This document shows, piece after piece, positions 1 to 64,000 of a stretch of 64,000 nt of DNA. The stretch comes from an uncultured Actinomycetota bacterium (GTDB lineage: Bacteria; Actinomycetota; Actinomycetes; JACCUZ01): the NCBI GenBank assembly GCA_963723975.1, contig CAVRTI010000024.1, positions 81,954 through 145,953 on the forward strand. The letters are read 5' to 3'. The notes under the pieces were generated by a model that did no database searches, was not told where the DNA came from, and was given only the letters and a program-made list of their open reading frames with translations. Each line of letters starts with the position of its first letter. The stretch's first letter is position 1. Made by a program: the position numbers and the translations under genes.

Positions 1-406
1 ACCGACCAGGCTGCGCCCCGGCGCGAGTGCGAAGGACGCCACCCCGGCGGCGCCGAGCATGCACAGCGCGACGAACCACGGCGCGTCGCGCACCATCACA
101 CCCGACAGCAGCAGCATCCCGAGGGTGGCGTAGCCGATCTCGTGCGCGTCCGAGCCGGTGCCGGGCCGCGGGGATCACGGCCACGCCGACGGCCAGGCCG
201 GTGAGAACGACGCCGAGGCCGGGTGGGTTGTCGACCAGCAGCACGGCGCCTACCAGGCCGGCCAGCAGTGACAGCAGCGGCACCGGCCCGGCGACCGCCC
301 GGCCGTTGTCCGGCCAGACCCTTGCCAGCTCGGCGGACAGCGGTTCGGTGGCGGGTAGCGGCAGCGCCCGGCCCGGCGAACCCGGTGTGCTCGCTATGCC
401 GCTCAT
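1..406 (-). CDS. Hypothetical integral membrane protein, partial (continues past the window start). An apparent frameshift lies near 160-180
   Basis: The reverse strand from the ATG at 406 encodes MSGIASTPGSPGRALPLP...LLAGLVGAVLLVDNPPGLGVVLTGLAVGVAVIPAAR, then switches frame to ...HEIGYATLGMLLLSGVMVRDAPWFVALCMLGAAGVASFALAPG. The text is hydrophobic and helix-like. Its start overlaps the histidine kinase stop (ATGA). Confidence 0.4.
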   Translation of the reverse strand, partial: MSGIASTPGSPGRALPLPATEPLSAELARVWPDNGRAVAGPVPLLSLLAGLVGAVLLVDNPPGLGVVLTGLAVGVAVIPAARHRLGRARDRLRHPRDAAAVGCDGARRAVVRRAVHARRRRGGVLRTRAGAQPGR

Positions 407-1419
407 GCCGACCCTTCCGGTCCGGCGGGCAGGTCGACCACGAACCGGCAGCCGCCCTCACCTGCCGCTGCCAGCGCGATCTGACCGCCGTGCAGGGTCA
501 CCGCCCACCGGGCGATCGCCAGGCCGAGGCCGGTGCTGCCGTCCGTGGCAGCCGGTGCGCCGCGGTAGAAGCGGTCGAACACTCGGTCACGGTCGGCCGG
601 TGCGATGCCCGGTCCGTCGTCGGCGACCTCCAGGCGCAGGCCGTCCGGGCCGGAGCGGGCCGTCACCCGCACGGTGCCTCCTGGCGGGCTGTGCCGCGCG
701 GCGTTGTCGAGCAGGTTGGCCAGCACCTGGTGCAGCCGGGCGCCGTCCGCCCAGGCACGCGCTCCGGGAGGCGATACGTCAACGGTGAACCGCACGTCGC
801 GCCCGGTCATCGCAGCCTCGGCCACGGCGGCCTCGAGCACCGGGGTCATCGCGATTTCCCGGCGGTCCAGCGGCTCGGTGCCGGCGTCGATGCGGGACAG
901 GTCGAGCAGCTCGCGGACCAGCCTGCCCAACCGCTCGGTCTGCGCCAGAGCCGCCTGCAAGGTGGCCGGCTCGGGCTCGGCGACGCCGTCGACCAGGTTC
1001 TCCAGGATGGCCTGCAGCGCGGAGATCGGGGTGCGCAGCTCGTGACTGACGTTGGCGACCAGCTCCCGTCGTTCCCGGTCGGCGGCCTCGAGGTCGGCCG
1101 CCATCCGGTTGAAGGCTCGGGCCAGCTCGCCGACCTCGTCCCGCGACGTCGCCTGCACCCGACGGCTGTAGTCGCCACGGGCCATCGCCCGGGCCGCGGC
1201 GGTCATCGAGCGCAGCGGCGAGGTCATGCCGCGAGCCAGCAGCTGGGTGACGGCAAGGGCGAGCAGCACCGCCACCGGCAACGTGTAGCGCGGCCGCCAG
1301 TCGAGGCTGACCAGCCCGTACCAGACCAAGAAGGACGAGACGGCGACCGTGACGACGACCAGCACACCGAGCTTGGCCTTGATCGAGTGCAGCGGGTCGA
1401 GAGGGCGTGGCGGGATCAT
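403..1419 (-). CDS. Two-component sensor histidine kinase (HAMP-HisKA-HATPase)
   Basis: N-terminal TM segments, a HAMP-like region and an H-box (VSHELRTPISAL). N, G1 and G2 boxes (LLDNAARHS, DDGPGI, GLGLAIARW) are present. Confidence 0.85.
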   Translation of the reverse strand: MIPPRPLDPLHSIKAKLGVLVVVTVAVSSFLVWYGLVSLDWRPRYTLPVAVLLALAVTQLLARGMTSPLRSMTAAARAMARGDYSRRVQATSRDEVGELARAFNRMAADLEAADRERRELVANVSHELRTPISALQAILENLVDGVAEPEPATLQAALAQTERLGRLVRELLDLSRIDAGTEPLDRREIAMTPVLEAAVAEAAMTGRDVRFTVDVSPPGARAWADGARLHQVLANLLDNAARHSPPGGTVRVTARSGPDGLRLEVADDGPGIAPADRDRVFDRFYRGAPAATDGSTGLGLAIARWAVTLHGGQIALAAAGEGGCRFVVDLPAGPEGSA

Positions 1420-2109
1420 CTAGTCGCCCACCGCGTAGCCGACTCCGTGCACGGTGCGGATCACGTCCGGGCCGAGCTTGCGCCGCACGGCCTTGACGTG
1501 GCTGTCGACGGTTCGGGTGCGCGAGGCGTCGGCCCAGTCCCACACCTGGGCGAGCAGCTGTTCCCGGCTGAGCACCTGCTGGGGTCGTTCGGCCAGGCAG
1601 GACAGCAGGTCGAACTCCAGCGGCGTGAGGTGCACGACGGTCCCGCTGCGGCGGACCCGCCGTCCCGACCGGTCGATCTCCAGGTCGCCCAACACCTGCA
1701 GCGGCGCCGCGCTGCCCTCGCGGGCCAGCTCGGCTGCCCGGCGTACCCGCCGGAGCAAAGCGTGCACCCGGGCCACCAGCTCGCGCATGCTGAACGGCTT
1801 CGTGAGGTAGTCGTCGGCACCCGAGGCCAGGCCCATCAACGTGTCGGCCTCGTCCTCGCGAGCGGTGAGCATCAGCACCGGGACCGGTCGCTGCGCCTGC
1901 ACCCGGCGGCAGACCTCCAGGCCGTCGAAGCCGGGGAGCATGACGTCCAGCACGACCAGGTCGGGGACGAGCTCGGCGGCCGCGGCGACGCCGGAAGGTC
2001 CGTCCACGGCGACGTGCACCGTGAAGCCCTCGGCCTGCAGCCGTGCGGCGACCGCGGCGGCGATGGCCGGCTCGTCCTCGACGACGAGCACCGTGGCGGG
2101 AGACTCCAT
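1420..2109 (-). CDS. OmpR-family DNA-binding response regulator
   Basis: A receiver domain (VLVVEDEP...DLVVLDVMLPGFDG...DDYLTKPF) plus a winged-helix C-terminus. It abuts the histidine kinase start at 1419/1420. Confidence 0.9.
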   Translation of the reverse strand: MESPATVLVVEDEPAIAAAVAARLQAEGFTVHVAVDGPSGVAAAAELVPDLVVLDVMLPGFDGLEVCRRVQAQRPVPVLMLTAREDEADTLMGLASGADDYLTKPFSMRELVARVHALLRRVRRAAELAREGSAAPLQVLGDLEIDRSGRRVRRSGTVVHLTPLEFDLLSCLAERPQQVLSREQLLAQVWDWADASRTRTVDSHVKAVRRKLGPDVIRTVHGVGYAVGD

Positions 2110-2217
2110 GCGGAGAGCCTAGGGACGCTCGGTGGTCGAGGTCCGGACGCGACGTGAAGATCCTGTGCAGACCTTTCTGCCGCGACAGCCAGTTGTCGGC
2201 GGCCGTTTGGTGGCAGC

Positions 2218-2688: not shown

Positions 2689-2696
2689 CGCGTCGG

Positions 2697-3071: not shown

Positions 3072-3090
3072 GTCGCACCTGCCTCGCCGG

Positions 3091-3270
3091 TCAGTCGTCG
3101 TCGGTGTCGTCGAGGCGGGCCAGCCAGGTGGCGAGCCGCTCGACGGGGATCTCGAAGTCGGGGTGCTCGTCGACGAACTCCTGGAACCGGGTCGCGAGCC
3201 AGGCCAGCGTGACCTGCTCCTCGCCGCGCCGGGTCTCCAGCTCCTCGATGCCGCGGTCGGTGAAGTACAC
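3091..3270 (-). CDS. Small acidic hypothetical protein (59 aa) that is not in the ORF track
   Basis: A GTG start lies immediately after the kgd stop (TGA-GTC-GTG). It translates to [59 protein letters not shown]. The coding text is coherent and non-repetitive. Confidence 0.45.
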
Positions 3271-3273: not shown

Positions 3274-6200
3274 TCAGCCGGGCAGGGTGAAGGCCTGCTC
3301 GACCAGCTGGCGCTGCTCGAGGTCGTGCTTCTTGTGCGAGCCCGCGGCCGGTGAGGCCGAGGCGTTGCGCGCCACGCAGGACAGCCCGCGACCGCCGAGA
3401 TGGGCCGGCAGGTTGAGGGCCATGAACGGCCACGGACCCTGGTTGGCCGGCTCCTCCTGCACCCACACCAGCTCGGCGTCCGGGTAGGCGGCCACCGCCT
3501 GCGACGATCTCGGCGCTGGCCAGTGGGGCGAGCTGCTCGACCCGCAGGATGGCGACCTGCTCGCCGCCGGAGCCGGCCCGCTTGGCCCGCTCGGCCAGCA
3601 GGTCGTAGTAGACCTTGCCGGCGCACAGCAGAACCCGGCGTACCTGACCGGCCTGGATGCCGCCCTCGGTCTCCGGGATGACCGGCCGGAACGTGCCGGA
3701 GGTGAAGTCCTCCGTCGCGGACGCCGCAGCCTTGAGGCGCAGCATCGACTTCGGGGTGAAGACCACCAGCGGCCGACGCGGCTCGTGGTAGGCGTGCCAG
3801 CGGAGCAGGTGGAAGTACGACGCCGGCGTGGACGGGTAGGCGACCGTCATGTTGTCCTCGGCGCACATCTGCAGGAACCGCTCGATCCGGCCGGAGGAGT
3901 GGTCGGGCCCCTGGCCCTCGAAGCCGTGCGGCAGCAGCAGCACGACCGACGAGCGCTGGTTCCACTTCTGCTCGGACGACGAGATGAACTCGTCGATGAT
4001 CGTCTGCGCGCCGTTGAGGAAGTCGCCGAACTGCGCCTCCCAGAGCACCAGCGCGTCCGGCCGCGCCACCGAGTAGCCGTACTCGAAGCCCATCGCCGCG
4101 AACTCGGACAGCAGCGAGTCGTAGATCCAGAACCGGGCCTGGCCCTCGTCGAGGTGCGCGAGCGGGACCCACTCGTTCCCGGTCTGCCTTGTCGGTCAGG
4201 ACGGCGTGCCGCTGGACGAACGTGCCGCGACGGCTGTCCTGGCCGGCGAGCCGCACCGGCTTGCCCTCGAGCAGCAGCGAGCCGAACGCGAACAGCTCGC
4301 CCATCGCCCAGTCGATGCCACCTTCGGACGCCATCGCGGCCCGCTTCTGCAGCAGCGGCATGAGCTTCGGGTGCACGGTGAAGCCGTCGGGCAGGGCGAC
4401 GTGCGCGTCGGCGATCGCCTTGACGACCTCGAGCGGCACGGCGGTCGCGCGGCCCGGCGTACCGACCGTCGAGGACTGCTCGGCCGGCGGCTCGATGCCC
4501 TCGCCGGTGCCCTGGTCCTGCGACTGCCCGATCGCCTCGCGGGTCTCGGTGAACACCCGTTCCAGCTGGCCCTGGTAGTCGCGCAGCGCCTGCTCGGCCT
4601 CCTCGACCGAGATGTCGCCGCGGCCGATGAGGGACTCGGTGTACAGCTTGCGCACCGACCGCTTGCCCTCGATCAGCGAGTACATCAGCGGCTGGGTCAT
4701 CGACGGGTCGTCGCCCTCGTTGTGCCCGCGGCGCCGGTAGCAGACCAGGTCGATGACGACGTCCTTCTTGAACTCCTGGCGGTACTCGAAGGCGAGCTTC
4801 GCCACCCGCACGCAGGCCTCGGGGTCGTCGCCGTTCACGTGGAAGATCGGCGCCTGGATCATCCGGGCCACGTCGGTGCAGTAGAACGACGAGCGCGAGG
4901 CGGCCGGCGACGTGGTGAACCCGACCTGGTTGTTGACGATCACGTGGATCGTGCCGCCGGTGCGGTAGCCGCGCAGCTGGGAGAGGTTCAGCGTCTCGGC
5001 GACCACGCCCTGCCCGGCGAACGCGGCGTCGCCGTGCATCAGCACCGCGAGCACGGTGTAGCCGCCCTCGCCCTTGTCGATGCGGTCCTGCTTGGCGCGG
5101 GTGATGCCCTCGAGCACCGGGTTGACCGCCTCGAGGTGCGAGGGGTTCGCGGCGAGGTAGACCTTCGTCTCGCTGCCGTCGGGCGCCGTGAACGAGCCCT
5201 CGGTGCCCAGGTGGTACTTCACGTCGCCGGAGCCCTGCACCGAGCGCGGGTCCTGGTTGCCCTCGAACTCGCGGAAGATCTGCGCGTAGCTCTTGCCGGC
5301 GAGGTTGGCCAGCACGTTGAGCCGGCCGCGGTGCGGCATGCCGATGGTGACCTCGTCCATGCCGGACTCCGCGGCGGAGGTCATCACCTCGTCGAGCAGC
5401 GGGATGACCGACTCGCCACCCTCGAGGGAGAACCGCTTCTGCCCGACGTACTTCGTCTGCAGGAAGGTCTCGAACGCCTCGGCGGCGTTGAGCCGGCGCA
5501 GGATCGTCAGCTGGTCCTCGCGGGACGGCTTCGGGAAGCCGACCTCGACGCGTTCCTGGATCCACTTGCGCTCGTCGGGGTCCTGGATGTGCATGTACTC
5601 GATGCCGATCCGCCGGCAGTACGACTCGCGCAGCACCCCGAGGATCGTGCGCAGGCTGGCCATCGGCTGGCCGCCGAACCCGCCGGTGGCGAACTCGCGG
5701 TCGAGGTCCCACAGCGTCAGGCCGTGGCTGACGACGTCGAGGTCGGGGTGGGACCGCTGCCGGAACTCCAGCGGGTCGGTGTCGGCCATCAGGTGGCCGC
5801 GCACCCGGTAGGCGTGGATCAGCTCCTGGACGCGCGCCTGCTTGGCGACGTCCTCCTCGTGCGAGGCGGAGATGTCGCGGACCCAGCGGATCGGCTCGTA
5901 GGGGATCCGCAGCGAGCGGAACACCTCGTCGTAGAAGCCCTCCTCGCCGAGCAGCAGTGCGTGGATGCGACGGAGGAAGTCGCCGGACTGCGCGCCCTGG
6001 ATGATGCGGTGGTCGTAGGTCGAGGTCAGCGTCATGATCTTGCTGACGGCGAGCCGGGCCAGCGTCTCGGGCGCCGCGCCCTGGTACTCGGCGGGGTAGT
6101 CCATCGCGCCGACGCCGATGATGGTGCCCTGCCCGGCCATCAGCCGCGGCACCGAGTGCACCGTGCCGATCGTGCCGGGGTTGGTCAGGCTGATCGTGGT

Positions 6201-7103
6201 GCCGACGAAGTCGTCGGCGGTCAGCTTGTTCGCCCGCGCCCGGCGCACGACGTCCTCGTACGCCGACCAGAAGCCGGCGAAGTCCATCGTGTCCGCGCCC
6301 CTGATGGACGGCACCAGCAGCGTGCGCGACCCGTCCGGCTTCTGGATGTCGATCGCCAGCCCGAAGTTCACGTGCTCGGGCCGGACCACCGAGGGCTTGC
6401 CGTCGACCTCGGTGAAGCCCTGGTTCATCTCCGGCATCGCGGCCAGCGCCTTGACGACGGCGAAGCCGATCAGGTGGGTGAACGACACCTTGCCACCGCG
6501 GCCGCGCTGCAGCGCGTTGTTGATGACCGTCCGGTTGTCGATGAGCAGCTTGGCCGGCACCGCACGGACGCTGGTCGCCGTCGGCACCGTGAGGCTGGCC
6601 TGCATGTTGGTGACCACCCGGGCCGCCGGGCCCTTGAGGGTGGTGACGCCGTCCGCGGCCGCCGGCTTGGTCGCGGGCTTGGCCTCGGCGGGCGCGGCCG
6701 GTGCGCTCACCGGCGCGGCCGCCGGCTTCTGGGCCACCGGGTCGGCGGTCGGCGCGCCGTCGGCCCGAGGGGTTGCCGCCGCCGCGGGTGCCGACGCGGT
6801 CGGGGTGGTGGCGGGAGCAGGGGCCGGCGCGGACGGTGCCCCGTTGGACGGCGGCGCGGCAGGCGCGGAGCCGCCGTTGCCGCCCGCTCCGGAGTCGGCC
6901 GGCTTGAAGTCCTGGAAGAAGTCCCACCAGGCCGCGTCGACACTGTTCTTGTCGGCGAGGTACTGCTGGTAGAGCTCCTCGACGAGCCACTCGTTGGGGC
7001 CGAAGCCTCCAGGAGCGTTCGTCTGGCTGCTGCTGGCCGGCCCCGACGAGGACCCTGACTGTGACACGGCGCGGATCGCCCTCTTCCCTGCATTTCGCGA
7101 CAC
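3274..7103 (-). CDS. kgd: Multifunctional 2-oxoglutarate dehydrogenase E1 / 2-oxoglutarate decarboxylase (Kgd/OdhA/SucA), interrupted by two apparent 1-nt insertions near 3490-3500 and 4175-4190
   Basis: There is near-colinear similarity to M. tuberculosis Kgd and C. glutamicum OdhA ([15 protein letters not shown]; the E2-like PAKLLIDNR...; the TPP domain [13 protein letters not shown]; the C-terminus ...[15 protein letters not shown]...GSHKKH). The protein is read from three frames. Removing one base in 'aaggcagaccgg' restores ...[40 protein letters not shown]. Confidence 0.85.
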
Positions 7104-7169
7104 CTGTGGCGGTACCGGCCAGCCTAGTCGCCGCCAGGCGGGGTCGTGGAGGCCGTCGGCGCCACCGTC

Positions 7170-8345
7170 CTACAGCCCCATCGACCGGGAGATCACGAGC
7201 TTCTGCACCTCCGAGGCGCCCTCGACGACACGCAGCACGCGCAGGTGCCGGAGGACCCACTCGATGGGGCCTTCCCGGAGCAGCCCCATCCCGCCGAACA
7301 CCTGCAGGCAGCGGTCAGCGACGGCGTACGCCCGTTCCGTGCAGTAGAACTTCGCGATCGACGAGTCGAGCATCAGCGAACCGGCCGACGAGTCCTGGTC
7401 GGTGGCCCAGGCCAGGTGGTAGGCCATCCACCGCATCGCCTCGATCTCGGCCTTGCACTCGGCCAGTGGGAAGGACACGCCCTGGTTGGCGGCCAGCGGC
7501 TGGCCGAAGGCGGTGCGCGACCGGGCGTGCGCGACGGCCTGGTCGAGGCAGTGCTCGGCCAGCCCGAGGGACTGGGCGGCGAATCCGGCCCGGCCTCCGT
7601 TCAGGAACGACATCGCCGCGTGGAAGCCGCGGCCCACCTCGCCCACGACGTGGTCGGCCGGCACCCGGGCGCCGTCGAACCACAGCTCGGCCGGGTGCGA
7701 CTCGGCCATCGTGGCCTGCACTTTCCCGACGCGGTACTGGTCGCGCGGAACGACGAACGCGGTGATGCCGCCGTCCGCCCGCTTCTCCTGGTCGGTGACG
7801 GCGAACACGATGGCGAAGTCGGCCCGGTCGCCGTTGGTGATGTAGTGCTTCATACCGTCGATGACCCACTCGTCGCCGTCGCGGCGTGCCGTGGTACGGA
7901 TCGCCTGCGCGTCGCTGCCGGCCTCGGGCTCGGTCAGGGCGAAGCAGGTGCTGGCCTCGGCCCGCACGACCGGGTGCAGGTACGTCGGCCACAGGTGCTC
8001 GGGCAGCTTGAGCAGCATCGGGCTCGGCCCCGACGGGTTGGGCACGCCCAGGGTCAGCGGCGCGAGCCGCAGCCCGGAGCGCGCGGCGTCCTCGACGAGC
8101 AGGGCGGTGCCCAGCGTGGAGACCCCCCAGCCGCCGACCTCCTCGGGCAGGAAGCAGGCGTAGAAGCCCTCCTCGGCGGACCGTCGACGCAGGCCGAGCA
8201 CGGCCTGGTAGATCCGTTCCCGGTCCGGGTCGAGGGCGGTGAGCACCTCGCGCAGCGACTCCTCGGCCGGCCGCACCTCGCGGTCCAGGAACGTCCCGTA
8301 CGACTTCCGGAGCGCGGTCAGCTCGTCGGGCACCGTGAAGTCCAT
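7170..8345 (-). CDS. Acyl-CoA dehydrogenase
   Basis: MDFTVPDELTALRKSY... with ACAD N-terminal, middle and C-terminal signatures (FALTEPEAGSDA, WVIDGMKHYITNG, ...QVFGGMG). Confidence 0.85.
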   Translation of the reverse strand: MDFTVPDELTALRKSYGTFLDREVRPAEESLREVLTALDPDRERIYQAVLGLRRRSAEEGFYACFLPEEVGGWGVSTLGTALLVEDAARSGLRLAPLTLGVPNPSGPSPMLLKLPEHLWPTYLHPVVRAEASTCFALTEPEAGSDAQAIRTTARRDGDEWVIDGMKHYITNGDRADFAIVFAVTDQEKRADGGITAFVVPRDQYRVGKVQATMAESHPAELWFDGARVPADHVVGEVGRGFHAAMSFLNGGRAGFAAQSLGLAEHCLDQAVAHARSRTAFGQPLAANQGVSFPLAECKAEIEAMRWMAYHLAWATDQDSSAGSLMLDSSIAKFYCTERAYAVADRCLQVFGGMGLLREGPIEWVLRHLRVLRVVEGASEVQKLVISRSMGL

Positions 8346-8980: not shown

Positions 8981-9035
8981 GGCCAGAATATCTGAAATAT
9001 GTCCTTCACAAAAGAGATGTGAAGCATTACCTTCA
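8981..9035. promoter_or_regulatory. AT-rich divergent promoter/operator region containing the inverted repeat CTTCACA-N7-TGTGAAG
   Basis: The sequence is gaaatatgtCCTTCACAaaagagaTGTGAAGcattaCCTTCACAtcc. AT content is locally about 60% against a ~70% GC background. It lies between the divergent arsR-like and MFS starts. Confidence 0.4.
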
Positions 9036-9040
9036 CATCC

Positions 9041-15084: not shown

Positions 15085-16130
15085 ATGTCGGCTCCCACCA
15101 CGACCTCCCGGGCCGCCGCGCTGCGGGCGCTGCGGCCGGACCTGCACGACCCGGTCACCCGGACAGCCGCCTGGGCCCGCGCAGCCCTCGACGCGGGCCT
15201 GCTCGACCTGCCGCTGCCCGGCCGGGGCAGGACGACCGAGCGGTTCACCGGGCTGGCCGACCTGGGCACGCGTCGACCTGGATCTCGCCCGCCTCGCCGA
15301 GGCCCATGCCGACGCCGTCGCGATCCTCGCCGACCTCGGCGTGACCGGACCCGGCGACGGGCTGTGGGGGGTCTGGGCGGCGAACCCGCCGACCGACCCG
15401 CTGCTTGGCACGGCGGGACGGCGACCACTGGCTGCTCGACGGCACCAAGCCCTGGTGCAGCGGCGCCGGGTGCTGCGACCACGCCCTGGTCACGGCCCGC
15501 ACCGACGACGGCTACCGGCTCTTCGCCGTCGACCTCGCCGCGCCCGGCGCGACGCCGGTGGACGGCAGCTGGCCGGCCGCGGCGATGCAGGGCAGCGACA
15601 GCCGCTCGGTGCGGTTCGAGGACGTGCCGGCCGTGCCGGCCGGCGGCCCGGAGGAGTACCTGCAGCGACCGGGCTTCTGGCACGGCGCGGTAGGAGTGGC
15701 CGCGGTGTGGTGGGGCGGGGCCCGCGGTGTCGCCCGCGCCCTGGCCAGGGCCGACGCCCGGCGGCCGCTGAACCCGCACGCCCTCGCACACGCCGGCGCG
15801 GTCGACGCCGGGCTGTCGGCCGCGTGGGCCGCCCTCGCCTCGGCCGCGGCCTGCTTCGACGACGACCCGGCCGACACCGCGGGCACCGCCCGGCTCGCGG
15901 CGGCCCGGGTCCGGGCAGCCGTCGAGAGCGCCGCGACCGAGGTCGTCGGGCGCACCGGCCGGGCGCTCGGCGCGGCGCCGCTGGCCCTCGACGCCGACCA
16001 CGGCCGCCGGGTGGCCGACCTGGGGCTGTACCTCAGGCAGAGCCACGCAGAGCGTGACCTCGAGGAGCTCGGCCGGCAGAGCCTGGACGCCGGCGCCTTC
16101 CCGTGGGCCGACCCGGACGGCGCACGATGA
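15085..16130 (+). CDS. Acyl-CoA dehydrogenase-family protein, split by two apparent 1-nt insertions (near 15268 and 15412)
   Basis: Three consecutive frames read MSAPTTTSRAAALRALRP...FTGLADLG | VDLDLARLAEAHADAVAILADLGVTGPGDGLWGVWAANPPTDPLL | ARRDGDHWLLDGTKPWCSGAG...C-terminal helical domain. Its stop overlaps the next gene (ATGA). Confidence 0.6.
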
Positions 16131-34536: not shown

Positions 34537-36460
34537 GTGTCCGACACCACCGACCTCCTCGACGCGCCCGCCACGGGCGGCGTCGAGGACGGCTCCGTCG
34601 ACTCCTCGGCGACCAAGCCCGCCCGCAAGCGCTCCGCCGGCCTGTCCGGCATGGTGCTCGCCGAGCTGCAGGGCCTGGCCGGCGAGCTCGGCATCAGGGG
34701 CACCGCCAAGATGCGCAAGGGACAGCTGATCGAGGCCATCAAGGAGCGCCAGGACGGCAGTTCCGGTGACGCGGCCCGCCAAGGCACCCGCCGAGCGCAG
34801 CCGCCGCGGGTCCGCTGCCCGCGCCGAGCGGCGGCCCACCGACAACGACGACAGCCAGCAGAACCCGCCGGCCGAGGCCGACGACAGCCAGCCGGGCGAC
34901 GGCCAGCCGGGCGAGCGGCGGCCGGCGACCGCGCCGCGACCGCGTCCGACCGCGGCGACCGGGCGGCCACCGCGAGCGAGGCCGGCGACCAGGGCGGCGA
35001 CCAGCAGGCCGGGCGGCAGCAGGGCGACCGCAAGCGCGAGGACCGTGGCGCCCAGCAGGGCAACCGTCCAGCAGGGCGGCCAGGGCGGGCAGGCCACCCA
35101 GGGCGGGCCGGCCAACCAGGGCGGGCAGGCCAACCGGGACGGGCAGGCCAACCGGGACGACGAGGACGACTTCGACGGTCGGGGCGGGCGGAGCCGTCGC
35201 CGTGGCCGCTACCGCGATCGCAACCGCAACCGCCGCGGCGGCCGGGACGGCTTCGCCCCGGGCGACGGCGACGCCCTGCCCGAGATCAGCGAGGACGACG
35301 TCCTGGTGCCGGTCGCCGGGATCCTCGACATCATGGACAACTACGCGTTCGTCCGGACCTCCGGCTACCTGCCGGGCCCGAACGACGTGTACGTCGCGCT
35401 GGCACAGGTGCGCAAGAGCGGCCTGCGCAAGGGTGACGCCATCACCGGCGCGGTCCGGGCGCCCCGTGAGGGTGAGCGCAAGGAGAAGTTCAACGCGCTC
35501 GTCCGCCTCGACACCGTGAACGGCGCCGAGCCGGACAAGTCGCGGAGCCGGGTGGAGTTCGGCAAGCTGACTCCGCTCTACCCCCAGGACCGGCTCCGCC
35601 TCGAGACCGAGCCCGGCATCCTCACCACCCGCGTCATCGACCTGGTCGCGCCGATCGGCAAGGGCCAGCGCGGCCTGATCGTCTCGCCGCCCAAGGCCGG
35701 CAAGACGATGGTGCTGCAGGCGATCGCCAACGCCATCACGACGAACAACCCCGAGGTCCACCTCATGGTCGTGCTGGTGGACGAGCGGCCGGAAGAGGTC
35801 ACCGACATGCAGCGGTCGGTCAAGGGCGAGGTCATCGCCTCGACGTTCGACCGGCCGGCCGAGGACCACACCATCGTCGCCGAGCTGGCGATCGAGCGGG
35901 CCAAGCGGCTCGTCGAGCTGGGGCACGACGTCGTCGTCCTGCTCGACTCGATCACCCGGCTCGGCCGCGCCTACAACCTCGCGGCCCCCGCGAGCGGGCG
36001 GATCCTGTCCGGGGGTGTCGACTCGACGGCGCTGTACCCGCCGAAGCGCTTCTTCGGTGCCGCCCGCAACATCGAGAACGGTGGGTCGCTGACCATCCTC
36101 GCCACGGCGCTGGTCGAGACCGGCTCGCGGATGGACGAGGTGATCTTCGAGGAGTTCAAGGGCACCGGCAACATGGAGCTCAAGCTCGACCGGAAGCTCG
36201 CCGACAAGCGGATCTTCCCGGCGGTGGACGTGGACCCGTCCGGCACCCGCAAGGAAGAGATCCTGATGGACCGCTCCGAGCTCCAGGTCACCTGGAAGCT
36301 CCGCCGGGTGCTGCACGCCCTCGAGACCCAGCAGGCGCTGGAGCTGCTCCTGGACCGGATGAAGAAGACGCAGAGCAACGCCGAGTTCCTCATGCAGGTG
36401 CAGCAGACGATGCCGATGCCGGGTAACGGCAACGGCAACGGCAGCTCGGACGAGGACTGA
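34537..36460 (+). CDS. rho: Transcription termination factor Rho, with a long R/G/Q/D-rich N-terminal insertion and an apparent 1-nt insertion near 34762-34768
   Basis: A Rho_N domain ([34 protein letters not shown]) lies in frame 1 from the GTG at 34537. The RNA-binding and ATPase domains ([23 protein letters not shown]...[17 protein letters not shown]...) lie in frame 2 from 34766. A ~330-nt 5' leader precedes the gene. Confidence 0.85.
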
Positions 36461-36683: not shown

Positions 36684-37259
36684 GTGCAGCAGGACCGAGG
36701 TCGAGCGCCACGTTCCGCGACCCGTGCAGTGCTTCGCTGCGCCGTGCTCGCGGTGGTCGTCGCGCTCTCGGGCCTGACCGGTCTGGGCCTGGCCGGCCCC
36801 GCCGCGGCGGCGGACCTGGACTGCACCCCGATGGGGGACCCGGCCTGCCGCGACCTCACCCCCGTGGTGGAGTGCGTCTGGGTCGAGACGAACGGTTCGC
36901 GGACGATCGTCTGGGGCTACGACAACCCCAGCACCCTCACCCTGCACATCGACATCGGCAACAAGAACAAGATGTCCCCGGGCGCCGAGGACGGCGGTCA
37001 GCCGACCGACTTCGCGCCCGGCCGCACGGCTCAACGCGTTCGTGACCAACGTCCCAGGCACCAGCGCGACCTGGCGCCTGGGCAACAACACGGCGAGCCT
37101 CTCCGGCGCGACCAAGGCCTGCGTGACCAAGCCGGTCTCCCTGATCGGCAGCGCCTCTGCCCTGGCCGTGTTCCTGCTGCTGATCGCGATCGCGATCCCG
37201 ATCGCGGTCCGGCCGCGCCACGGCCAGCCGGGCGGCCGACCCGTACGGACCGCGGCATG
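36684..37259 (+). CDS. Secreted cysteine-containing protein with a C-terminal TM anchor plus basic tail. An apparent 1-nt insertion lies near 37028-37035
   Basis: Frame 0 gives a signal peptide (RAVLRCAVLAVVVALSGLTGLGLAGPAAAA) followed by ...DLDCTPMGDPACRDLTPVVECVWVETNGSRTIVWGYDNPSTLTLHIDIGNKNKMSPGAEDGGQPTDFAPGRTA. Frame 1 continues ...FVTNVPGTSATWRLGNNTASLSGATKACVTKPVSLIGSASALAVFLLLIAIAIPIAVRPRHGQPGGRPVRTAA*. The stop overlaps the next ATG. Confidence 0.5.
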
Positions 37260-37919: not shown

Positions 37920-38027
37920 CCACCGAGCCCGCCGCGTCGCCCGCTCGTCCCACCACCACGCCGGTCGACCAGGCCGCGCCGTGGACCCTGCTGATCATCG
38001 CCGGACTGGCGGTCGCTCGCCTGCGCG

Positions 38028-39292
38028 GTGCTGGGCGTCAACCGGGCGATCCTGGCGGCGACCGTCGGGGTGAACCTCATCTTCCTGATCTTCTTCCTGC
38101 GGCACGTCGCGTTCGCCGCGGCCGCGATGCGGTGGGCGCCCCGGGACCTCTACGAGGCGCCGGAGGTCGAGCTCGGCTACCAGCCGGCGGTCTCGGTGCT
38201 GGTGGCCTGCCACGACGAGGCACTGGTCGCGGAGAAGCTGGTGACCGGGATGGCCGCGCTGCACTACCCGCGCTCGCACCTCGAGATCCTCTTCGTCGAC
38301 GACGGCTCGACCGACGGCACCGGTGACCTGCTCGAGCGGCTGACCGCCGGGGAGCGGCACATGCATGTGCTCCGCCGGCCACCTGGGTCGGGCGGCGGCA
38401 AGTCCGGCGCGCTGAACCTGGCCGCCGAGCGCGCCCGCGGTGAGGTCCTGGTCGTCTTCGACGCCGACCACGTGCCGAGGCGGGACGTCATCGCACGGCT
38501 GGTGCGGCACTTCCAGGACGACCGGGTGGACGCGGTGCAGGGCCGCTGCGTCATCCGCAACTCCGTCGAGTCGACCCTTGGCGCGCTCGATCGCGATCGA
38601 CTACTTCTCCGGCTACCTCGTCAACGAGTACGGGCGGCAGGCGCTGTTCGGGCTGCCGGCGTACGGCGGGGCGAACTGCGCGGTGCGGACCTCGCGGCTG
38701 CGCGAGCTGGGCGGCTGGAACGAGGACAGCGTCACCGAGGACACCGACCTCACGATGCGGATCGTGCTGAGCGGCGGGCGGATCCGGTACGACATCACCG
38801 CGGTCGACACCGAGGAGGGCGCCACCACGCTGCGCCGCTTCCGCACCCAGCGCTACCGCTGGGCCCGCGGCCATCAGCAGGTCTGGCGCGAGTACCGCTC
38901 GGCGGTGGTGCGGTCGCCGCACCTGTCGTTCGTGGAGAAGGTCGAGACGCTGCAGTTCCTGCTCGTCTACCACGTCCCCGCGGTGTGCGCGCTCACGTTG
39001 TTCATCACGGCACTGCGGATCGCCGGCGTCGGGACCGTCGGTGTCCGTCTTCGAGATGCTGCCGTTGTCAGCCCTGCTGTTCGCCGGCCCGTTCTGCGAG
39101 CTGGCGGTGGGGCTGGTCGTGGGGCGTGCGCCGCGCCGGTCAGCCTGGTCGGTCGCCTGGCTGACCCCGTTGTTCTTCGTGTTCATGCTGGTCTGCGCCA
39201 AGGCCTGGCTGGACGGCGTGCTGGGCCGGCCCTACACCTGGGCGAAGACCAAGCGGTCGTCCTGGTCGCCGCTGCACGGGGTGTCGACGTGA
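38028..39292 (+). CDS. Membrane glycosyltransferase family 2 (processive synthase-like, PgaC/cellulose-synthase-like), split by two apparent 1-nt insertions (near 38575 and 39040)
   Basis: An N-terminal TM, then a GT-A domain (LVACHDEALVAEKL...ILFVDDGSTDGT...VVFDADH...QGRC) in frame 0. It continues ...IDYFSGYLVNEYGRQALFGLPAYGGANCAVR...QRYRWARGHQQ (QxxRW) in frame 1. The C-terminal TMs (...LLFAGPFCELAVGLVVG...) are in frame 2. Confidence 0.7.
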
Positions 39293-43575: not shown

Positions 43576-43673
43576 CTGCCCTCACGGCGTCGGTCCGGGT
43601 CCCTCTCGAGGGCCGGACCGGCGCCGTCTGTCTGTGTGTGCTGTCGTCGAAGGTCGAGATGAGGTGAGCAGTC

Positions 43674-48849: not shown

Positions 48850-49283
48850 CGGTCCGACCTGAGGTCGGCGTGCGCCGGCTGCTCGGCCCGGCCACCCTCA
48901 CCGCCCTGGCCGTCGGAGCGGTGTGCGTCGTGGCCGGCTCGGTCCTCAGCGGCCCGGCCGGCCTCGCGGCGGCGCTGCTGGGGATCGTGCTGGTGCTGGG
49001 GTTCCTGCTCGTCGGCCAGCTGCCGGTCGCGCAGGCGGCGCGGGGCCGGGGTGGCCTGGGTGCGATGCTCCTGCTGCTCGGCTACTCGCTGCGCGTCCTG
49101 CTGCTGCTGATGGTGTTCGTCGCTGTCACGCAGGCAGGGGCGCCGGACCGAGAGGTGCTCGGCGGTCACGGTGATCGCCGTCGGGCTGGGCTGGACGGCC
49201 GGCACGGTGTGGACCTGGCTGCACTGGCGGGGACCCGTCGTCGACGTGGAGCTTCCATCGGACCGGGACCCGGCCGAGCGCTG
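48846..49283 (+). CDS. Small membrane protein preceding the atp operon (Rv1303-like). An apparent 1-nt insertion lies near 49140-49150
   Basis: A GTGA start overlaps the wecA stop. Frame 0 reads ...MLLLLGYSLRVLLLLMVFVAVTQAG, then frame 1 reads ...SAVTVIAVGLGWTAGTVWTWLHWRGPVVDVELPSDRDPAER*. Confidence 0.5.
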
Positions 49284-49300
49284 ATAGGGTCCTTCGCGCG

Positions 49301-51285: not shown

Positions 51286-52113
51286 GCCGGGGCAGCATGC
51301 AGGGCGCGAGCCGAGGGTCCCTCGCGGCCGCCCGCGAGACGCTGGGGACGCTGATCCGCTCCGGTGACTCCGACCTGCTTGCCCTCGGCGACGACCTGTT
51401 CGCCGGCGGCCGCCGTGCTCGACCGGGAGCTCGGTCTGCGGCGCGCGCTCACCGACCCCTCCCGCACCGGTGACGACCGGGCGGGGCTCGCTCGCGCGGT
51501 CTTCGCCGACCGGGTCGGCAGTGCAGCCGTCGACGTCCTCGTGTGGGCGGTCCGGTCCCGCTGGTCCGCGCCGCGCGAGCTCGGTGACGCGGTCGAGCTG
51601 CTGGCCGTCGAGGCGGTCGCTGCCGCGGCCGAGAAGGCCGGCCGCCTCGACACCGTCGAGGACGAGCTGTTCCGGATCAGCCGCATCGTGGCCGGCGCCC
51701 CCGAGCTGCGCACCGCGCTGGCCGATCGTTCGGCCCCTGTCGAGAGCCGCGCAGCGCTCATCGAGGGTCTGCTCGGCGACCGGGTGGCCGAGGAGACCCG
51801 GCGGCTCGTCCGGCAGGCTGTCGTCGCGCCGCGCGGGCGAACGTTCGACCGGGCTGTCGAGGTCTACGGCCAGGTGGCCGCCGAGCTGCGCAGCCGGCTG
51901 ATCGCCACCGTGACGGCTACCGTGCCGCTGACCGAGGAGCAGCGTGGCCGGCTCGCCGACGCCCTGCGCCGCATCTACGGATCCGAGCTGCACCTCAACG
52001 TCCAGCTCGACCCGGACCTCGTGGGCGGCATCCGGGTCGAGATCGGTGACGAGGTCATCGACGGCTCCATGGTGGCCCGCCTCGACGAAGCCCGCCGACG
52101 GCTCGTGGGCTGA
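51282..52113 (+). CDS. atpH: F0F1 ATP synthase subunit delta (long actinobacterial form). An apparent 1-nt insertion lies near 51403-51415
   Basis: An ATGA overlap couples it to atpF. Frame 0 reads MSRGSMQGASRGSLAAARETLGTLIRSGDSDLLALGDDLFA. Frame 1 reads ...VLDRELGLRRALTDPS...OSCP-like C-terminus ...GIRVEIGDEVIDGSMVARLDEARRRLVG. Confidence 0.85.
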
Positions 52114-52188: not shown

Positions 52189-53842
52189 ATGGCCGAGCTC
52201 ACCATCCGGCCGGAGGAGATCCGGGACGCGCTCGAGCGCTTCGTCGCCTCCTACGAGCCTGACGCCGCCGAGCGCGAAGAGGTCGGGCACGTCACCGAGG
52301 CCGGTGACGGCATCGCGCGGATCGAGGGCCTGCCCTCCGCGATGACAAACGAGCTGCTCGAGTTCGAGGACGGCACCCTCGGCCTGGCGCTGAACCTCGA
52401 CGTCGGCGAGATCGGGGCCGTGGTGCTCGGCGAGTTCCGCGGCATCGAGGAGGGCCAGCCGGTTCGCCGTACCGGCGAGATCCTCTCGGTGCCGGTCGGC
52501 GACGGGTACCTCGGCCGGGTCGTCGACCCGCTGGGCAACCCCCTCGACGGCAAGGGGGAGATCGAGTCCTCGGCCCGTCGCGCGCTCGAGACCCAGGCGC
52601 CCTCGGTCGTGCAGCGCCAGGGTGTCAAGGAGCCGCTGCAGACCGGCATCAAGGCCATCGACGCGATGACCGCCATCGGCCGCGGCCAGCGCCAGCTGAT
52701 CATCGGCGACCGCCAGACCGGCAAGACCGCGGTGGCCCTCGACGCGATCATCAACCAGAAGGCGAACTGGGAGTCCGGCGACGTCCAGCGCCAGGTCAAG
52801 TGCATCTACGTCGCCATCGGCCAGAAGGGCTCGACGATCGCGGGCGTCCGCTCCGCGCTCGAGGAGAACGGCGCGCTCGAGTACACGACGATCGTCGCGT
52901 CACCCGCGTCCGACCCGGCCGGCTTCAAGTACCTCGCGCCCTACACCGGCTCGGCCATCGGGCAGCACTGGATGTACGAGGGGCAGCACGTCCTGATCAT
53001 CTTCGACGACCTGTCCAAGCAGGCCGATGCCTACCGTGCCGTCTCGCTCCTGCTGCGGCGCCCGCCGGGCCGCGAGGCCTACCCCGGCGACGTGTTCTAC
53101 CTGCACTCGCGGCTGCTCGAGCGCTGCGCGAAGCTCTCGGACGAGATGGGCGGCGGCTCGATGACCGGCCTGCCGATCATCGAGACCAAGGGCAACGACG
53201 TGTCCGCGTTCATCCCGACCAACTGCATCTCGATCACCGACGGCCAGTGCTTCCTCGAGACGGACCTGTTCAACTCCGGTGTCCGCCCGGCCATCAACGT
53301 CGGTGTCTCGGTGTCCCGGGTCGGCGGCTCGGCACAGGTCAAGGGTCTGCGCAAGGTCGCCGGCAGGCTGCGCCTCGACCTGGCGCAGTACCGCGAGCTG
53401 GAGGCCTTCGCCGCCTTCGGGTCCGACCTGGACGCGGCCTCCAAGTCACAGCTGGCCCGCGGCGCGCGGCTGGTCGAGCTGCTCAAGCAGGGCCAGTACT
53501 CACCGTTCGCCGTCGAGGACCAGATCATCTCGATCTGGGCCGGCACGACCGGCAAGCTCGACGACGTACCCGTCGAGGACATCCGCCGGTTCGAGAGCCG
53601 AGCTGCTCGACTACCTGGGCCGCGAGCACAAGGAGCTCGTCGACGCCCTCGCCGAGACCAAGGAGCTCACCGACGACGCGGTGTCCGGTCTCGAGGACGC
53701 GGTCGACAACTTCAAGAAGGAGTTCGAGACCTCGTCCGGCGAGCTGCTCGTCAACGACGAGCCGGTCGGGGCCATGGACGAGGACGAGGTCGAGCAGGAG
53801 ACCATCAAGAAGCACGTCCGCAAGCCGGCGGCGAAGAAGTAG
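52189..53842 (+). CDS. atpA: F0F1 ATP synthase subunit alpha. An apparent 1-nt insertion lies near 53595-53600
   Basis: A Walker A motif ([10 protein letters not shown]) and full alpha colinearity to ...VEDIRRFES. The true C-terminus ([26 protein letters not shown]...[11 protein letters not shown]) is in the +1 frame. The 863-aa ORF in the track is an artefactual fusion with atpG. Confidence 0.9.
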
Positions 53843-53844
53843 CG

Positions 53845-56719: not shown

Positions 56720-57153
56720 TGAGTCTGATCGTGCTGCTCGACGTGCTCGCCGCCCTGGTGGCGCTCGCGCTGCTCGCCCTGGGGCTTCTCGTGCTGCGCC
56801 GCCGGGTGGTCACCCGCGCCGGCGGAACGTTCGACTGCAGCCTGCGCCTCGGCGAGGGCAGCTACGGCAAGGGCTGGGTGCTCGGCATCGGCCGCTACTC
56901 GGGTGAGCGCCTGGAGTGGTACCGCGTGTTCTCCTACTCGATGCGTCCGCGCCGGGTGCTCAGCCGCCGGGACCTGCAGGTCGTCGAGCGCCGGGACCCA
57001 CACGGGGCTGAGGCGTTCTCGCTGCTGTCCGGCGCGATGGTCGTCCGCTGCCGGGACGGAGACGGGCCGGTCGAGCTCGCGATGAGCCAGGACACCCTGA
57101 CCGGGTTCCTGGCCTGGGTCGAGTCGTCGCCACCCGGCACGCGCACCACCTGA
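56720..57153 (+). CDS. DUF2550-family membrane protein (Rv1312-like, downstream of atpC)
   Basis: An N-terminal TM (LIVLLDVLAALVALALLALGLLVL) and a conserved position after the atp operon in Actinobacteria. Confidence 0.7.
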
Positions 57154-57166
57154 CCCGGACGCAGCG

Positions 57167-57640
57167 TCAGCGGAGGAAGGTGAACAGCCGCCGTCCCTCT
57201 AGCAGGGGCTGCGAGTCTCCGGTGAACCGGTGCACGCCTACTGACCACCCGACGTCGGCGGGAGCCGTGAAGGACAGCTCGAGGAAGCCGGCCTCGGCGA
57301 ACCAGCGACGAGCCGCGGGCGTGAGGTCCGGCTCCCGCCGGTGGCGGGTCCAGACCACGGTGGCATCGGGCGCGCACAGCTGTGGCAGCGCCGCGACCGT
57401 CCGCGCGGCGTCGTGGCCGCTGATGTTGCCGAGCACTCCGCAGAGCAGCACCAGGTCGGCCGGCGCGGCGCCGATGTAGGCATCGGTGCGGCTCGCGTCG
57501 GCCTGGCGGACCGTGCATCCGGAGAGGCCGGCTTCCGCGTTGAGCATCTGCGCCGGCGACGGCCCGGGACCTGCTCGACGTTCTGATGCGGCGCACGGAC
57601 GGCGGTCGGACGTCCGGGCAACCTGGTCGAGGCTGACGCC
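57167..57640 (-). CDS. Putative small class I SAM-dependent methyltransferase. Motif I is degenerate and the start is uncertain, so it may be a truncated remnant
   Basis: ...[31 protein letters not shown]...[28 protein letters not shown]... resembles MTase motifs I, post-I and II. The upstream text is low-complexity. Confidence 0.35.
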
Positions 57641-57654
57641 GTGAGCCGGCGTGC

Positions 57655-59724: not shown

Positions 59725-59909
59725 CAGCCCGTAGTGTCGGTGCCGCCTGCGCTCGGGCGCCGCTCGACGAGCGACCGCTTCCGACCGCCGTACGCCCAGC
59801 GCAGGAGGAGGGCGAGCACACCCACCACCGCGACCGAGGTCATCAGCGCGATCCAGTCCGGCACCCGGCCAGTCTCGCCCATCGAGTCGCCCGGTTAGGC
59901 TCCCGGCCC

Positions 59910-60905: not shown

Positions 60906-60920
60906 GTGTGGCCGAGCGGG

Positions 60921-61073: not shown

Positions 61074-61390
61074 ATGGTCGTCGACATGGCGAGCGGGCAG
61101 GAGATCGCGCTGTCCGGCCGGCTGGACGTGAGCGCAGTGGCCGAGGTGCGCGCCGCGCTGCACGACGCCCTGGACGCCGGTTCCGGCGACCTGGTGGTCG
61201 ACCTGGCCGGCGTCGAGGTCATCGACGCGACCGGTCTGGGTGTCCTGCTCGGGGCCGACCGCCGGGCCAAGCTGCTGGACCGCCGGATCGTCCTGCGCGA
61301 CGCGGCTCCCCCGCGTCCGTGCGGATCCTGCGGGTCACCCGGCTGCACCGGGTGCTCACCCTCGATGCCCCGGTCGGCGCCACCGTCTGA
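61074..61390 (+). CDS. STAS-domain anti-sigma factor antagonist. An apparent 1-nt insertion lies near 61305-61312
   Basis: MVVDMASGQEIALSGRLDVSAVAEVRAALHDALDAGSGDLVVDLAGVEVIDATGLGVLLGADRRAKLLDRRIVLRDAAPP, then the +1 frame VRILRVTRLHRVLTLDAPVGATV*. Confidence 0.7.
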
Positions 61391-61439
61391 GCCGCCACCC
61401 GCGGCCCCGGCCGGTGTTACCCGCCGGTAGGCTCCGGCC

Positions 61440-63449: not shown

Positions 63450-63455
63450 CCCGGC

Positions 63456-64000
63456 CTAGGTGTCGTCGCGGCGCCGGAACCGGAAGTACCGCAGCGCCAG
63501 CACCAGGGCGGCCACCGACCAGAGCGCGAGCACCAGCGCGGTGCGCCCGAGCTCCCATGACCCGGCAAGCTCCTGGCGCTGGAACGTGTCGGGCAGGAAC
63601 ACCGACCGCATGCCCTGGCACAGCCACTTCAGGGGGAACAGGGCGGACATCTGCTGCATCCACGGCGGCAGCCCGTCGTACTGGAAGAACACCCCGGAGG
63701 TGAACTGCAGCACCAGGACGACCGGCGACACCAGCGCGGAGGCACCGCGCCCGCTGCGCGGCACCGAGGAGAACCCGATGCCGAGGAGCGTGCAGCACAC
63801 CAGGCCGAGCACGCTGACCCAGGTGAACGTCCACCAGTCGGCGAGCTCGTCCGGCAGGTGCACGTCGAACAGCGTCACCCCGAGCGCCATCATGGCGGCG
63901 ACCTGGACGACGTAGATGACCAGGACCAGGCCGACTTTGCCGACGAAGTACGACGACTTCGGCATCGGTGTGCCCTGCAACCGCTTCAGCGTGCCGTCGT
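63456..64000 (-). CDS. ABC-2 type transporter permease, C-terminal part (the gene continues beyond the window)
   Basis: Multiple TM helices and an ABC-2 signature-like region ...LPPWMQQMSALFPLKWLCQGMRSVF... Confidence 0.6.
   Translation of the reverse strand, partial: DGTLKRLQGTPMPKSSYFVGKVGLVLVIYVVQVAAMMALGVTLFDVHLPDELADWWTFTWVSVLGLVCCTLLGIGFSSVPRSGRGASALVSPVVLVLQFTSGVFFQYDGLPPWMQQMSALFPLKWLCQGMRSVFLPDTFQRQELAGSWELGRTALVLALWSVAALVLALRYFRFRRRDDT

Follow-up and report, generated by a model that had tools for sequence, protein, structure and literature searches.

Split genes in the window

The stretch of DNA analysed here, referred to as the window, is 64,000 nt long and very probably derives from an uncultured high-GC actinomycete near Sporichthyaceae/Frankiales-type lineages. 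It contains ~60 genes, of which 11 (~18 %) are broken by a total of 19 frame-changing events; 18 of these are clear one-base insertions and one is an ambiguous site. One-base indels amount to ~0.03 % of the bases in the window, and the number of broken genes is far above chance. Frame switches were located by codon-model Viterbi segmentation, a plot of GC3 phase, three-frame reading and alignment to homologues, and the inserted base was placed precisely for nine of the 19 events, namely those lying where L178 or L167, both close relatives, overlaps the window. An earlier sequence-only reading had reported 13 split genes. The splitting is real and all 13 of the listed sites prove to be true frame switches, each within ~10 nt of the position given, as judged by segmentation, GC3, frames and homologues; however, the list comprises 13 sites in ten genes rather than 13 genes. 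The events added by the recount are three in rho, one in a GT2 glycosyltransferase gene, one in a STAS-domain gene and one at ~59735 in a small gene.

On the minus strand, a membrane-protein gene that runs off the start of the window (406 to <1) has a +1 insertion at ~151 (145..160), where the coding frame passes from class 1 to class 0, the basis for this call being codon statistics and ORF continuity only, with no homologue. The kgd gene (7103 to 3274, minus strand) has two +1 insertions. At ~3499 (3493..3508), three-frame reading gives ...AEIV followed by 22 further protein letters, and in the repaired protein the Pfam domain OxoGdeHyase_C is matched without a break over the junction (residues 2–151 of 151). 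At 4187 (4181..4193), the deletion of one base from AAG[G]CAG (here and below, brackets enclose the position concerned) yields DKQTGNEW, within ...LTDKQTGNEW..., as had been proposed from the sequence alone. The alignment of the uncorrected kgd ORF to the Kgd structures PDB 8p5r/2xt6 ends at residue 982, and in the repaired protein Transket_pyr is matched at residues 3–173 of 174 across the 4187 junction. On the plus strand, an acyl-CoA-dehydrogenase-like gene (15085–16130) also has two +1 insertions, at ~15265 (15259..15274; class 1 to class 2) and at ~15407 (15401..15413; class 2 to class 0). Codon statistics and ORF continuity are the sole basis for the former, and for the latter the repaired protein aligns to PDB 3swo over residues 97–157, across the junction.

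The most heavily affected gene is rho (34537–36460, plus strand), to which a single insertion had been attributed and which in fact has four, all +1. At 34773 there is an extra G relative to L178; the GC3 phase flips there, and the new frame agrees with the homology AAKAAPAE in the relative L176. The second and third insertions, at 34917 and 34943, are likewise extra bases relative to L178, the latter being an extra C (CGG to CG[C]G), and frame 0 of L178 is continuous through the whole N-terminal region of rho. The fourth lies at 35067..35068, where the window has CG[TC]CAG, L178 has CGT CAG and L176 has CGC CAG. Downstream, on the same strand, a gene for a secreted or membrane-anchored protein (36684–37260) has one +1 insertion at 37029..37030, as seen by comparison with relatives (window ACG[GC]TC; L178 ACG GTC; L168 GCG CTC). 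The GT2 gene (37910–39292, plus strand) has three +1 insertions, two of which had been recognized before and one of which, at 38014..38015, had been missed. At this last site the window reads GT[CG]CTC, L167 reads GTC CTC and L178 reads GTG CTC; at 38579..38580 the window reads CT[TG]GCG, L178 has CTT and L167, L174, L176 and L168 have CTG; and at 39030 the window reads GT[C]GGG, L167 and L178 have GTG GG, and L168 and L176 have C at that position. After repair, the GT2 product aligns with P0133 over 100 % of its length at 97 % identity, and Glyco_tranf_2_3 is matched at 1–230 of 230 across the 38579..38580 junction.

The remaining events lie in and around the atp operon and further downstream, and all but one are on the plus strand. 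Upstream of the operon, a small membrane-protein gene (~48846–49284) has a +1 insertion at 49164..49167, where the window reads GG[TC]ACG, L178 reads GGT ACG and the relative L081 is one base shorter. The atpH gene (51282–52113) has a +1 insertion at ~51408 (51402..51417), where 16 pairs of homologue HSPs join frame 3 to frame 1 and the window has one base more than every aligned relative. In atpA (52189–53842), a +1 insertion lies at 53597..53599; ~59 pairs of plus-strand homologue HSPs join frame 1 to frame 2, the window (GAGAG[C]CGAG) has one base more than seven relatives, and ATP-synt_ab_C is matched at 1–126 of 126 across the junction in the repaired protein. The exception is a small, conserved minus-strand gene (59882 to 59557), absent from the earlier list, which has a net change of +2 or -1 at 59733..59737; five pairs of homologue HSPs join at this site, the minus strand reads GAC AC TAC against ...GEYGLMV in homologues, and the event may be a deletion. 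Finally, the STAS-domain gene (61074–61390) has a +1 insertion in a run of five C at 61308..61312, which had been noted at ~61310, and a second one, previously overlooked, at 61321, i.e. 10 nt after the first. Both are supported by the same comparisons with L081 and Pfam, in that GCT CCC [C] CGC GTC CGT [G] CGG gives ...AAPRVRRILRV, matching ...GPRLRRILRV of L081, and the repaired protein matches STAS_2 at 1–79 of 80.

Several further candidates were rejected. A third kgd shift suggested by the Viterbi path at ~3091 lies beyond the kgd stop at 3274, after which there are two small genes, and apparent frame switches at 8985–9169 fall in a divergent intergenic region. A single deletion in rho at ~34910 gave way, on comparison with L178, to two separate +1 insertions. 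At 31782/31791 and at 37689, the window is correct and it is L178 that is erroneous.

Comparison with close relatives

When one base is removed at each site, full-length proteins are obtained with unbroken matches to Pfam, PDB and homologues. As had been claimed, there are neither internal stops nor lost domains, according to Pfam searches of the repaired proteins and PDB alignment. The relatives available for comparison range from a contig of the same species, L178, which is 98.5 % identical over positions 28528–49285 of the window (20.8 kb), to more distant relatives recovered in a scan of genome contigs (AtpD identity ≤87 %) and in a metagenome scan with Rho (≤87 %), both of which were used for protein-level junction counts only. 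L178 lacks all nine of the coding insertions that the window has in the region of overlap; at the same time, it carries 22 private one-base coding insertions of its own, including some in hom and thrC, where the window is intact. Between the window and the contig L167 (95.3 % nucleotide identity over 2474 nt), the only indels are the three insertions in GT2. All 13 proteins in the P0133 cluster, the closest GT2 homologues, read through the sites; each aligns to the window in four uninterrupted blocks, which lie in frames 2, 3, 1 and 2. Neither in the 98.5 % conspecific nor in any of >100 relatives are the shift sites conserved, the relatives' genes being uninterrupted at every site examined.

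The window insertions are thus private to this sequence, and the genes that they break are otherwise conserved and under selection. Codon differences between the window and L167 in the GT2 gene comprise 45 synonymous and 11 non-synonymous changes, with synonymous changes dominating in every segment past the shifts, and GC3 remains ≥0.9 in the shifted frames. A comparable situation is found in another relative, L082, a long-read-style assembly that differs from L081 by 41 clustered indels.

Extra bases at polymorphic sites

The claim that the sites are not homopolymers is borne out, in that the sole run of more than three is the C5 at 61308–61312 and run lengths at the sites equal the window background. 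A search for a common motif at the insertion sites, including CCWGG at 38579, found none across sites. What many of the precisely placed insertions do have in common is their relation to variation among strains. At six sites (38014/15, 38579/80, 35068, 37030, 39030 and 34773), the inserted base together with the one beside it makes up the pair of alleles that close relatives have there, the comparison being with L167 and L178 for 38014/15 and 38579/80 and with L176 and L168 for the other four; it covered the insertions within reach of L178 and L167 other than 34943 and 49167. At 38014/15, the CG of the window corresponds to C in L167 and to G in L178; at 38579/80, its TG corresponds to T in L178 and to G in L167. 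Since L167 and L178 differ at only 5.5 % of sites, the probability that two out of three GT2 insertions would coincide with such differences is ~0.009. At 34917, the inserted base adjoins a SNP but matches no allele seen in the relatives. Eight of the nine precisely placed insertions fall in 1-kb bins with 14–29 SNPs per kb relative to L178, compared with a background of ~9.

In L178 itself, 20 of the 22 insertions stand beside a third codon position with the extra base being a synonymous alternative (null expectation 33 %) and two of the 22 adjoin an identical base (null 52 %). In the window, a hand count finds seven of the nine precisely placed insertions compatible with a synonymous third-position allele. 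The non-homopolymer context, which had been regarded as unusual for errors of this kind, is accounted for by the insertions being at strain-polymorphic, mostly third-codon sites, with both alleles standing side by side. An insertion-biased, context-free profile is also expected of raw PacBio-type noise (PMC4719071).

Origin of the insertions and consequences for annotation

In all likelihood, the splitting of these genes is an artefact of assembly, with at least 18 spurious one-base coding insertions in the consensus. This agrees with the sequence-only reading, which had favoured insertion errors over pseudogenisation and recoding and is supported in this by the private nature of the insertions, the purifying selection downstream of them and the lack of a recoding signal; its view that long-read errors are responsible fits the finding that the conspecific contig has its own, different set. 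Most likely, the insertions arose during consensus building or polishing at strain-polymorphic sites, the two alleles of which were set down one after the other. In such a process, the sampled population would have consisted of two or more co-occurring strains that differed by SNPs, for the most part synonymous ones in third codon positions; at some of these SNPs, noisy read alignments would have placed the minority allele as an insertion beside the majority allele, and consensus building or polishing would have retained both, giving tandem alleles (e.g. GTC/GTG becoming GTCG). Tandem writing of alleles would explain why the bias is towards insertions only, why these are not tied to homopolymers, why they cluster where SNPs are dense and why each independent assembly of the species has a private set.

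The window very probably comes from a long-read metagenome assembly, and the names of the relatives' contigs together with the error pattern suggest that the platform was probably Nanopore and are also the grounds for the presumed pipeline; that several strains were present in the sample and that polishing was involved are likewise inferences. In uncorrected long-read assemblies, ~23 % of genes can be frameshifted (23.3 % pseudogenes) as a result of errors in <0.05 % of bases (PMC12007338). The window resembles such Nanopore or PacBio assemblies and MAGs, in which rare one-base indels break approximately one-fifth of the genes and a single-base edit restores the frame, and the relatives L082 and L178, which are from long-read-style ENA assemblies, have the same symptom. 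However, typical Nanopore errors are mainly homopolymer deletions (PMC12007338; PMC4719071), whereas those seen here are almost only insertions and lie outside homopolymers. A parallel to the placement of the insertions is the collapsed assembly of Trypanosoma brucei, where nearby allelic variants led to misaligned reads and ORF-truncating indel errors (PMC8445201), much as the insertions here fall on SNP positions, with the two alleles in tandem. The T. brucei case concerns a diploid eukaryote sequenced with PacBio, whereas in the present metagenome the part of the ‘haplotypes’ would be played by bacterial strains living together in a presumed mixed population.

Errors of another origin, simply left over at low coverage from the noise of single-molecule reads and random, insertion-biased and PacBio-CLR-like, with no relation to strain polymorphism, are unlikely but deserve some weight. 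They would be in keeping with the absence of any homopolymer or motif preference, given that indel errors on the PacBio RS are ~15 times as frequent as substitutions and show essentially no dependence on homopolymers or GC content (PMC4719071), and the clustering of events could reflect locally low coverage, as in L082. Yet read noise predicts that ~52 % of insertions will lie next to an identical base and that ~33 % will fit a synonymous allele at the third position, against 2/22 for the former in L178 and, for the latter, 20/22 in L178 and 7/9 in the window; moreover, two of the three GT2 insertions sit exactly on L167/L178 SNP sites with both alleles present.

Explanations in which the extra bases are real, whether by pseudogenisation or by +1 recoding, are effectively excluded. 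Decaying genomes with frameshifted genes do exist, that of Mycobacterium leprae being an example, and the extra bases do stand in the sequence as given. Nevertheless, genuine mutation, be it through reductive evolution, a mutator phenotype or a defective subpopulation, is very improbable, as the genes affected include the essential, single-copy rho (four times), atpA, atpH and kgd, in keeping with what had been said of essential genes, and show no other type of lesion, being free of in-frame stops and deletions and retaining their domains. Furthermore, synonymous substitutions still dominate downstream of the shifts, 13 of the 13 closest GT2 homologues are intact at the sites, and the 98.5 % conspecific is free of every overlapped lesion while having its private set in other essential genes. 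The common direction of the shifts, a claim that holds for 18 of the 19 events (all +1, with ~59735 being net +2 or -1), also speaks against mutation. The mixed lesions, sharing within a lineage and relaxed selection that characterize pseudogenes of reductive evolution were not found, the site at ~59735 being ambiguous. That same direction, with proteins running on seamlessly in the next frame, is the one point in favour of pervasive programmed +1 ribosomal frameshifting or transcriptional slippage, and it is what the window has in common with prfB and Euplotes. However, programmed +1 frameshifting in those systems entails a defined slippery site, an in-frame stop and conservation of the site across relatives, whereas the sites in the window share no slippery motif, have no stop or stall codon at the shift (past each site, the next stop in the old frame comes only after 63 to 1541 nt) and are not conserved in the 98.5 % conspecific or in any of >100 relatives. 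Recoding, which is vanishingly improbable, is also hard to reconcile with a STAS gene that would have to shift twice in the space of 10 nt and a rho gene that would have to do so four times within 300 nt. It is just as far-fetched that the extra bases are real in the living population and that Rho, AtpA, AtpH and Kgd are recovered by widespread, motif-less +1 recoding, although, if true, this would be a bacterial counterpart of the pervasive frameshifting in Euplotes.

With an assembly artefact as the explanation, the affected genes are ordinary and intact in the real organism, and their splitting is of no biological significance. Its importance is practical. The tandem-allele signature, that is, an insertion at a third codon position, in which the added base gives a synonymous codon and lengthens no homopolymer, constitutes a simple, reference-free diagnostic of the polishing errors to which strain microdiversity gives rise when metagenomes are assembled from long reads, and it could guide their correction. 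Automatic annotation of the present record will give split and fused genes, with rho, kgd and GT2 truncated and, for example, an artefactual 863-aa AtpA–AtpG ‘fusion’ ORF at 52189–54780. Such erroneous products do enter protein databases, as the wrong-frame translation of kgd matched database entries.

Frame switches and their repair

The window has a G+C content of 72 % and the gene content of a typical actinobacterial stretch, comprising kgd, argS/lysA/hom/thrC/thrB, rho, a PIG-L/GT2/ATP-grasp cluster, rpmE, prfA, prmC, glyA, the atp operon, murA and a methylmalonyl-CoA mutase gene. No protein of a large collection is more than 96 % identical to its AtpD; among named relatives, the nearest are uncultured 'Actinomycetes bacterium' MAGs as well as Sporichthyaceae, Frankiales and Motilibacter types. 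Because six-frame listing gives long shadow ORFs in every frame of this GC-rich sequence, ORF lists are useless here; the coding frame was therefore tracked with a Viterbi path on codon usage, for which secure genes served as the training set, and, separately, by GC at codon positions, with all three frames read at each same-strand switch lacking a stop codon. Every site listed in the sequence-only reading proves to be a true frame switch, at most ~10 nt from where it had been placed, based on frame tracking and three-frame reading with support from homology. The '13 genes' said to be split are 13 sites in 10 genes, and the total is now 19 events in 11 genes, i.e. 18 clear +1 insertions (one surplus base shifting the frame) and one ambiguous event. 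Thus, the earlier statement that all shifts run in the same direction holds for 18 of 19; the exception lies at ~59735 in a small conserved minus-strand gene (59882 to 59557), where the net change is +2 or -1 and may represent a deletion. The sites are indeed not homopolymers, as the longest runs within 2 nt of them are distributed as in the window background, the C5 run at 61308-61312 being the only one above 3, and no common motif was found among the insertion sites. The sites at ~151 and ~15265 were called purely from codon statistics and ORF continuity.

The alignment of the uncorrected Kgd ORF with Kgd in the PDB stops at residue 982. With homologues from dozens of loci, ~59 plus-strand HSP pairs join at 53596-53600 in atpA, and 16 pairs join at 51405-51420 in atpH, consecutive pieces being in different frames in both cases. 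Aligned as DNA with all relatives, the window carries one extra base at the atpA, atpH and pre-atp (small membrane-protein gene) sites and two at the STAS site. When one base per site is removed, single full-length Pfam matches span the junctions in Kgd (Transket_pyr and OxoGdeHyase_C), the glycosyltransferase GT2 (Glyco_tranf_2_3), AtpA (ATP-synt_ab_C) and the STAS protein (STAS_2), and a PDB alignment runs across the second junction in the ACAD-like protein. The STAS gene contains two insertions, 10 nt apart, and its repaired ...AAPRVRRILRV... matches ...GPRLRRILRV... of a homologue. GT2 (37910-39292) has a third insertion near its 5' end, at 38014/15. For rho there are four, at 34773, 34917, 34943 and 35068, all surplus relative to the same-species contig L178, whose N-terminal rho region is in one frame; the GC3 phase passes from class 1 to 2 to 1 to 2, with a hidden 26-nt class 0 stretch between the second and third insertions, and the first and last are independently supported by the related locus L176. 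A putative third kgd switch near 3091 was rejected, since kgd stops at 3274 and the next genes follow.

The longest ORF at 52189-54780 is an artificial 863-aa AtpA-AtpG 'fusion', because the atpA insertion keeps frame 1 open past the out-of-frame end of atpA into atpG. When kgd is translated in the wrong frame (3847-7260, minus strand), 12 database proteins still match it at 46-74 % identity, and Kgd Pfam domains occur in some of these; therefore, public protein collections hold chimeric in-frame/out-of-frame products of other frameshifted assemblies. An M23-peptidase ORF on the minus strand (19447 down to 17972) shares ~170 nt (17972-18146) with the 3' end of a convergent plus-strand gene, and the true stop of the ORF could have been lost through an undetected indel near its 3' end.

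Comparison with close relatives

Close relatives were obtained via protein hits. L167, a JGI metagenome contig, is 95.3 % identical over 2474 nt, with 113 substitutions and exactly three indels, which are the three GT2 insertions. GT2 codon differences between the two comprise 45 synonymous and 11 non-synonymous changes, and synonymous changes predominate past every shift, too; hence, purifying selection has acted on the 'broken' frames practically up to the present. In the closest GT2 protein cluster, all 13 members, from separate contigs, align as four contiguous segments (frames 2, 3, 1 and 2).

L178 (ENA ERZ25039530 contig_21099) is 98.5 % identical across 28528-49285 and is therefore conspecific. 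None of the nine coding-sequence insertions that the window has in the overlap is present in L178, which carries 24 private one-base insertions (22 of them coding) plus a few deletions. These lesions fall in hom, thrC, thrB, rho, the PIG-L gene, the GT2 gene and others, at places where the window is intact (e.g. the window keeps the canonical HPLASVREAFNAVFVE in hom), and leave thrC, rho, GT2, prmC and other L178 genes fragmented. The same symptom appears in two long-read-style assemblies of one relative, L081 (ENA ERZ25039498) and L082 (ENA ERZ25039516), which are 97.8 % identical; relative to the intact L081, L082 has 41 indels, clustered and mostly in its first 7.4 kb, that split prfA, prmC, atpB, atpF and atpH.

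At four intergenic positions (34518, 36563, 36577 and 39827), the window has one base more than L178, with either sequence at fault, and the true number of spurious bases in the window is probably greater than 19. An 18-nt repeat (QGGQAT) within a disordered R/G/D/Q-rich insert of rho (35069-35101) differs in copy number between the two, as does the length of an intergenic TCTG/TGTG-rich tract upstream of prfA, by 7 nt (GTCTGTC) at 43637. Some 500 nt at 57152-57654, flanked by the genes for DUF2550 and a PduO-type adenosyltransferase, are missing in L081 and in another relative, L086; the ORF there (minus strand, ~57560 down to 57167) covers just the C-terminal half of a SAM-methyltransferase-like protein and may be a gene remnant.

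Origin of the surplus bases

The inserted base can be placed exactly in regions covered by L178 or L167, with 10 of the 19 events falling outside them. At six of the exactly placeable sites, the surplus base and its neighbour (bracketed) are the two alleles of close relatives at that position; at 34917 the surplus base adjoins a SNP but matches none of the relatives' alleles. At 38014/15 the window reads GT[CG]CTC, with GTC in L167 and GTG in L178; at 38579/80 CT[TG]GCG, with CTT in L178 and CTG in L167, L174, L176 and L168; at 35068 CG[TC]CAG, with CGT in L178 and CGC in L176; at 39030 GT[CG]GG, with GTG in L167 and L178 and C at that position in L168 and L176; at 37030 ACG[GC]TC, with GTC in L178 and CTC in L168; and at 34773 GCG[GC]CC, with CCC in L178 and GCC in L176. 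Since only 5.5 % of sites vary between L167 and L178, finding two of three GT2 insertions on variable sites has P ~0.009, even before a base match is required. Independent and stronger evidence comes from the private insertions of L178: among the 22 in coding sequence, 20 adjoin a third codon position for which the surplus base offers a synonymous alternative (33 % expected from shuffling), and only two have an identical base next to them (52 % expected). Within the window, seven of nine precisely placed insertions have this synonymous third-position property, and eight of nine fall in SNP-rich 1-kb bins (14-29 SNPs per kb relative to L178; background ~9). Third positions account for 164 of 242 SNPs between the window and L178, G/C transversions being the commonest class.

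The frame switches are confirmed and their list extended, but they are almost certainly not real biology; their value is as a data-quality flag with a neat diagnostic signature. Genuine pseudogenisation is at odds with lesions that are private to the window sequence, of a single type and as many as four in rho alone, in genes still retaining selection. Programmed +1 recoding is likewise contradicted: the shifts have neither a stop or stall codon, the old frame running on for another 63 to 1541 nt, nor a common motif, and the sites are not conserved even in L178, at 98.5 % identity. The preference of the sequence-only reading for insertion errors over both is borne out by the private insertions, the retained selection and the conspecific's own, different set; two same-species assemblies with different private +1 sets in essential genes are the pattern of a method artefact, not of a living lineage. 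Plain random single-molecule noise would account for the bias towards insertions and the absence of context (PMC4719071), but it leaves the third-position and tandem-allele enrichment unexplained.

The simplest reading of the insertions, judged from the sequence comparisons, is that two strain alleles of one SNP were written side by side. The sample would have contained co-occurring strains, the minority allele at some SNPs would have been placed next to the majority allele as an inserted base, and the consensus or polisher would have retained both. The effect would be analogous to that in a collapsed diploid assembly, in which nearby allelic variants led to misalignment and indel errors truncating ORFs (PMC8445201). 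The relatives' contig names ('contig_N', ERZ assemblies) fit the Flye-plus-Medaka Nanopore workflow used in large soil MAG projects with high microdiversity (PMC12313526), and from this naming we infer a Nanopore platform. The scale of error is consistent with published long-read experience, in which errors in <0.05 % of bases left ~23 % of genes seemingly frameshifted (PMC12007338); in the window, ~0.03 % of bases and ~18 % of genes are affected.
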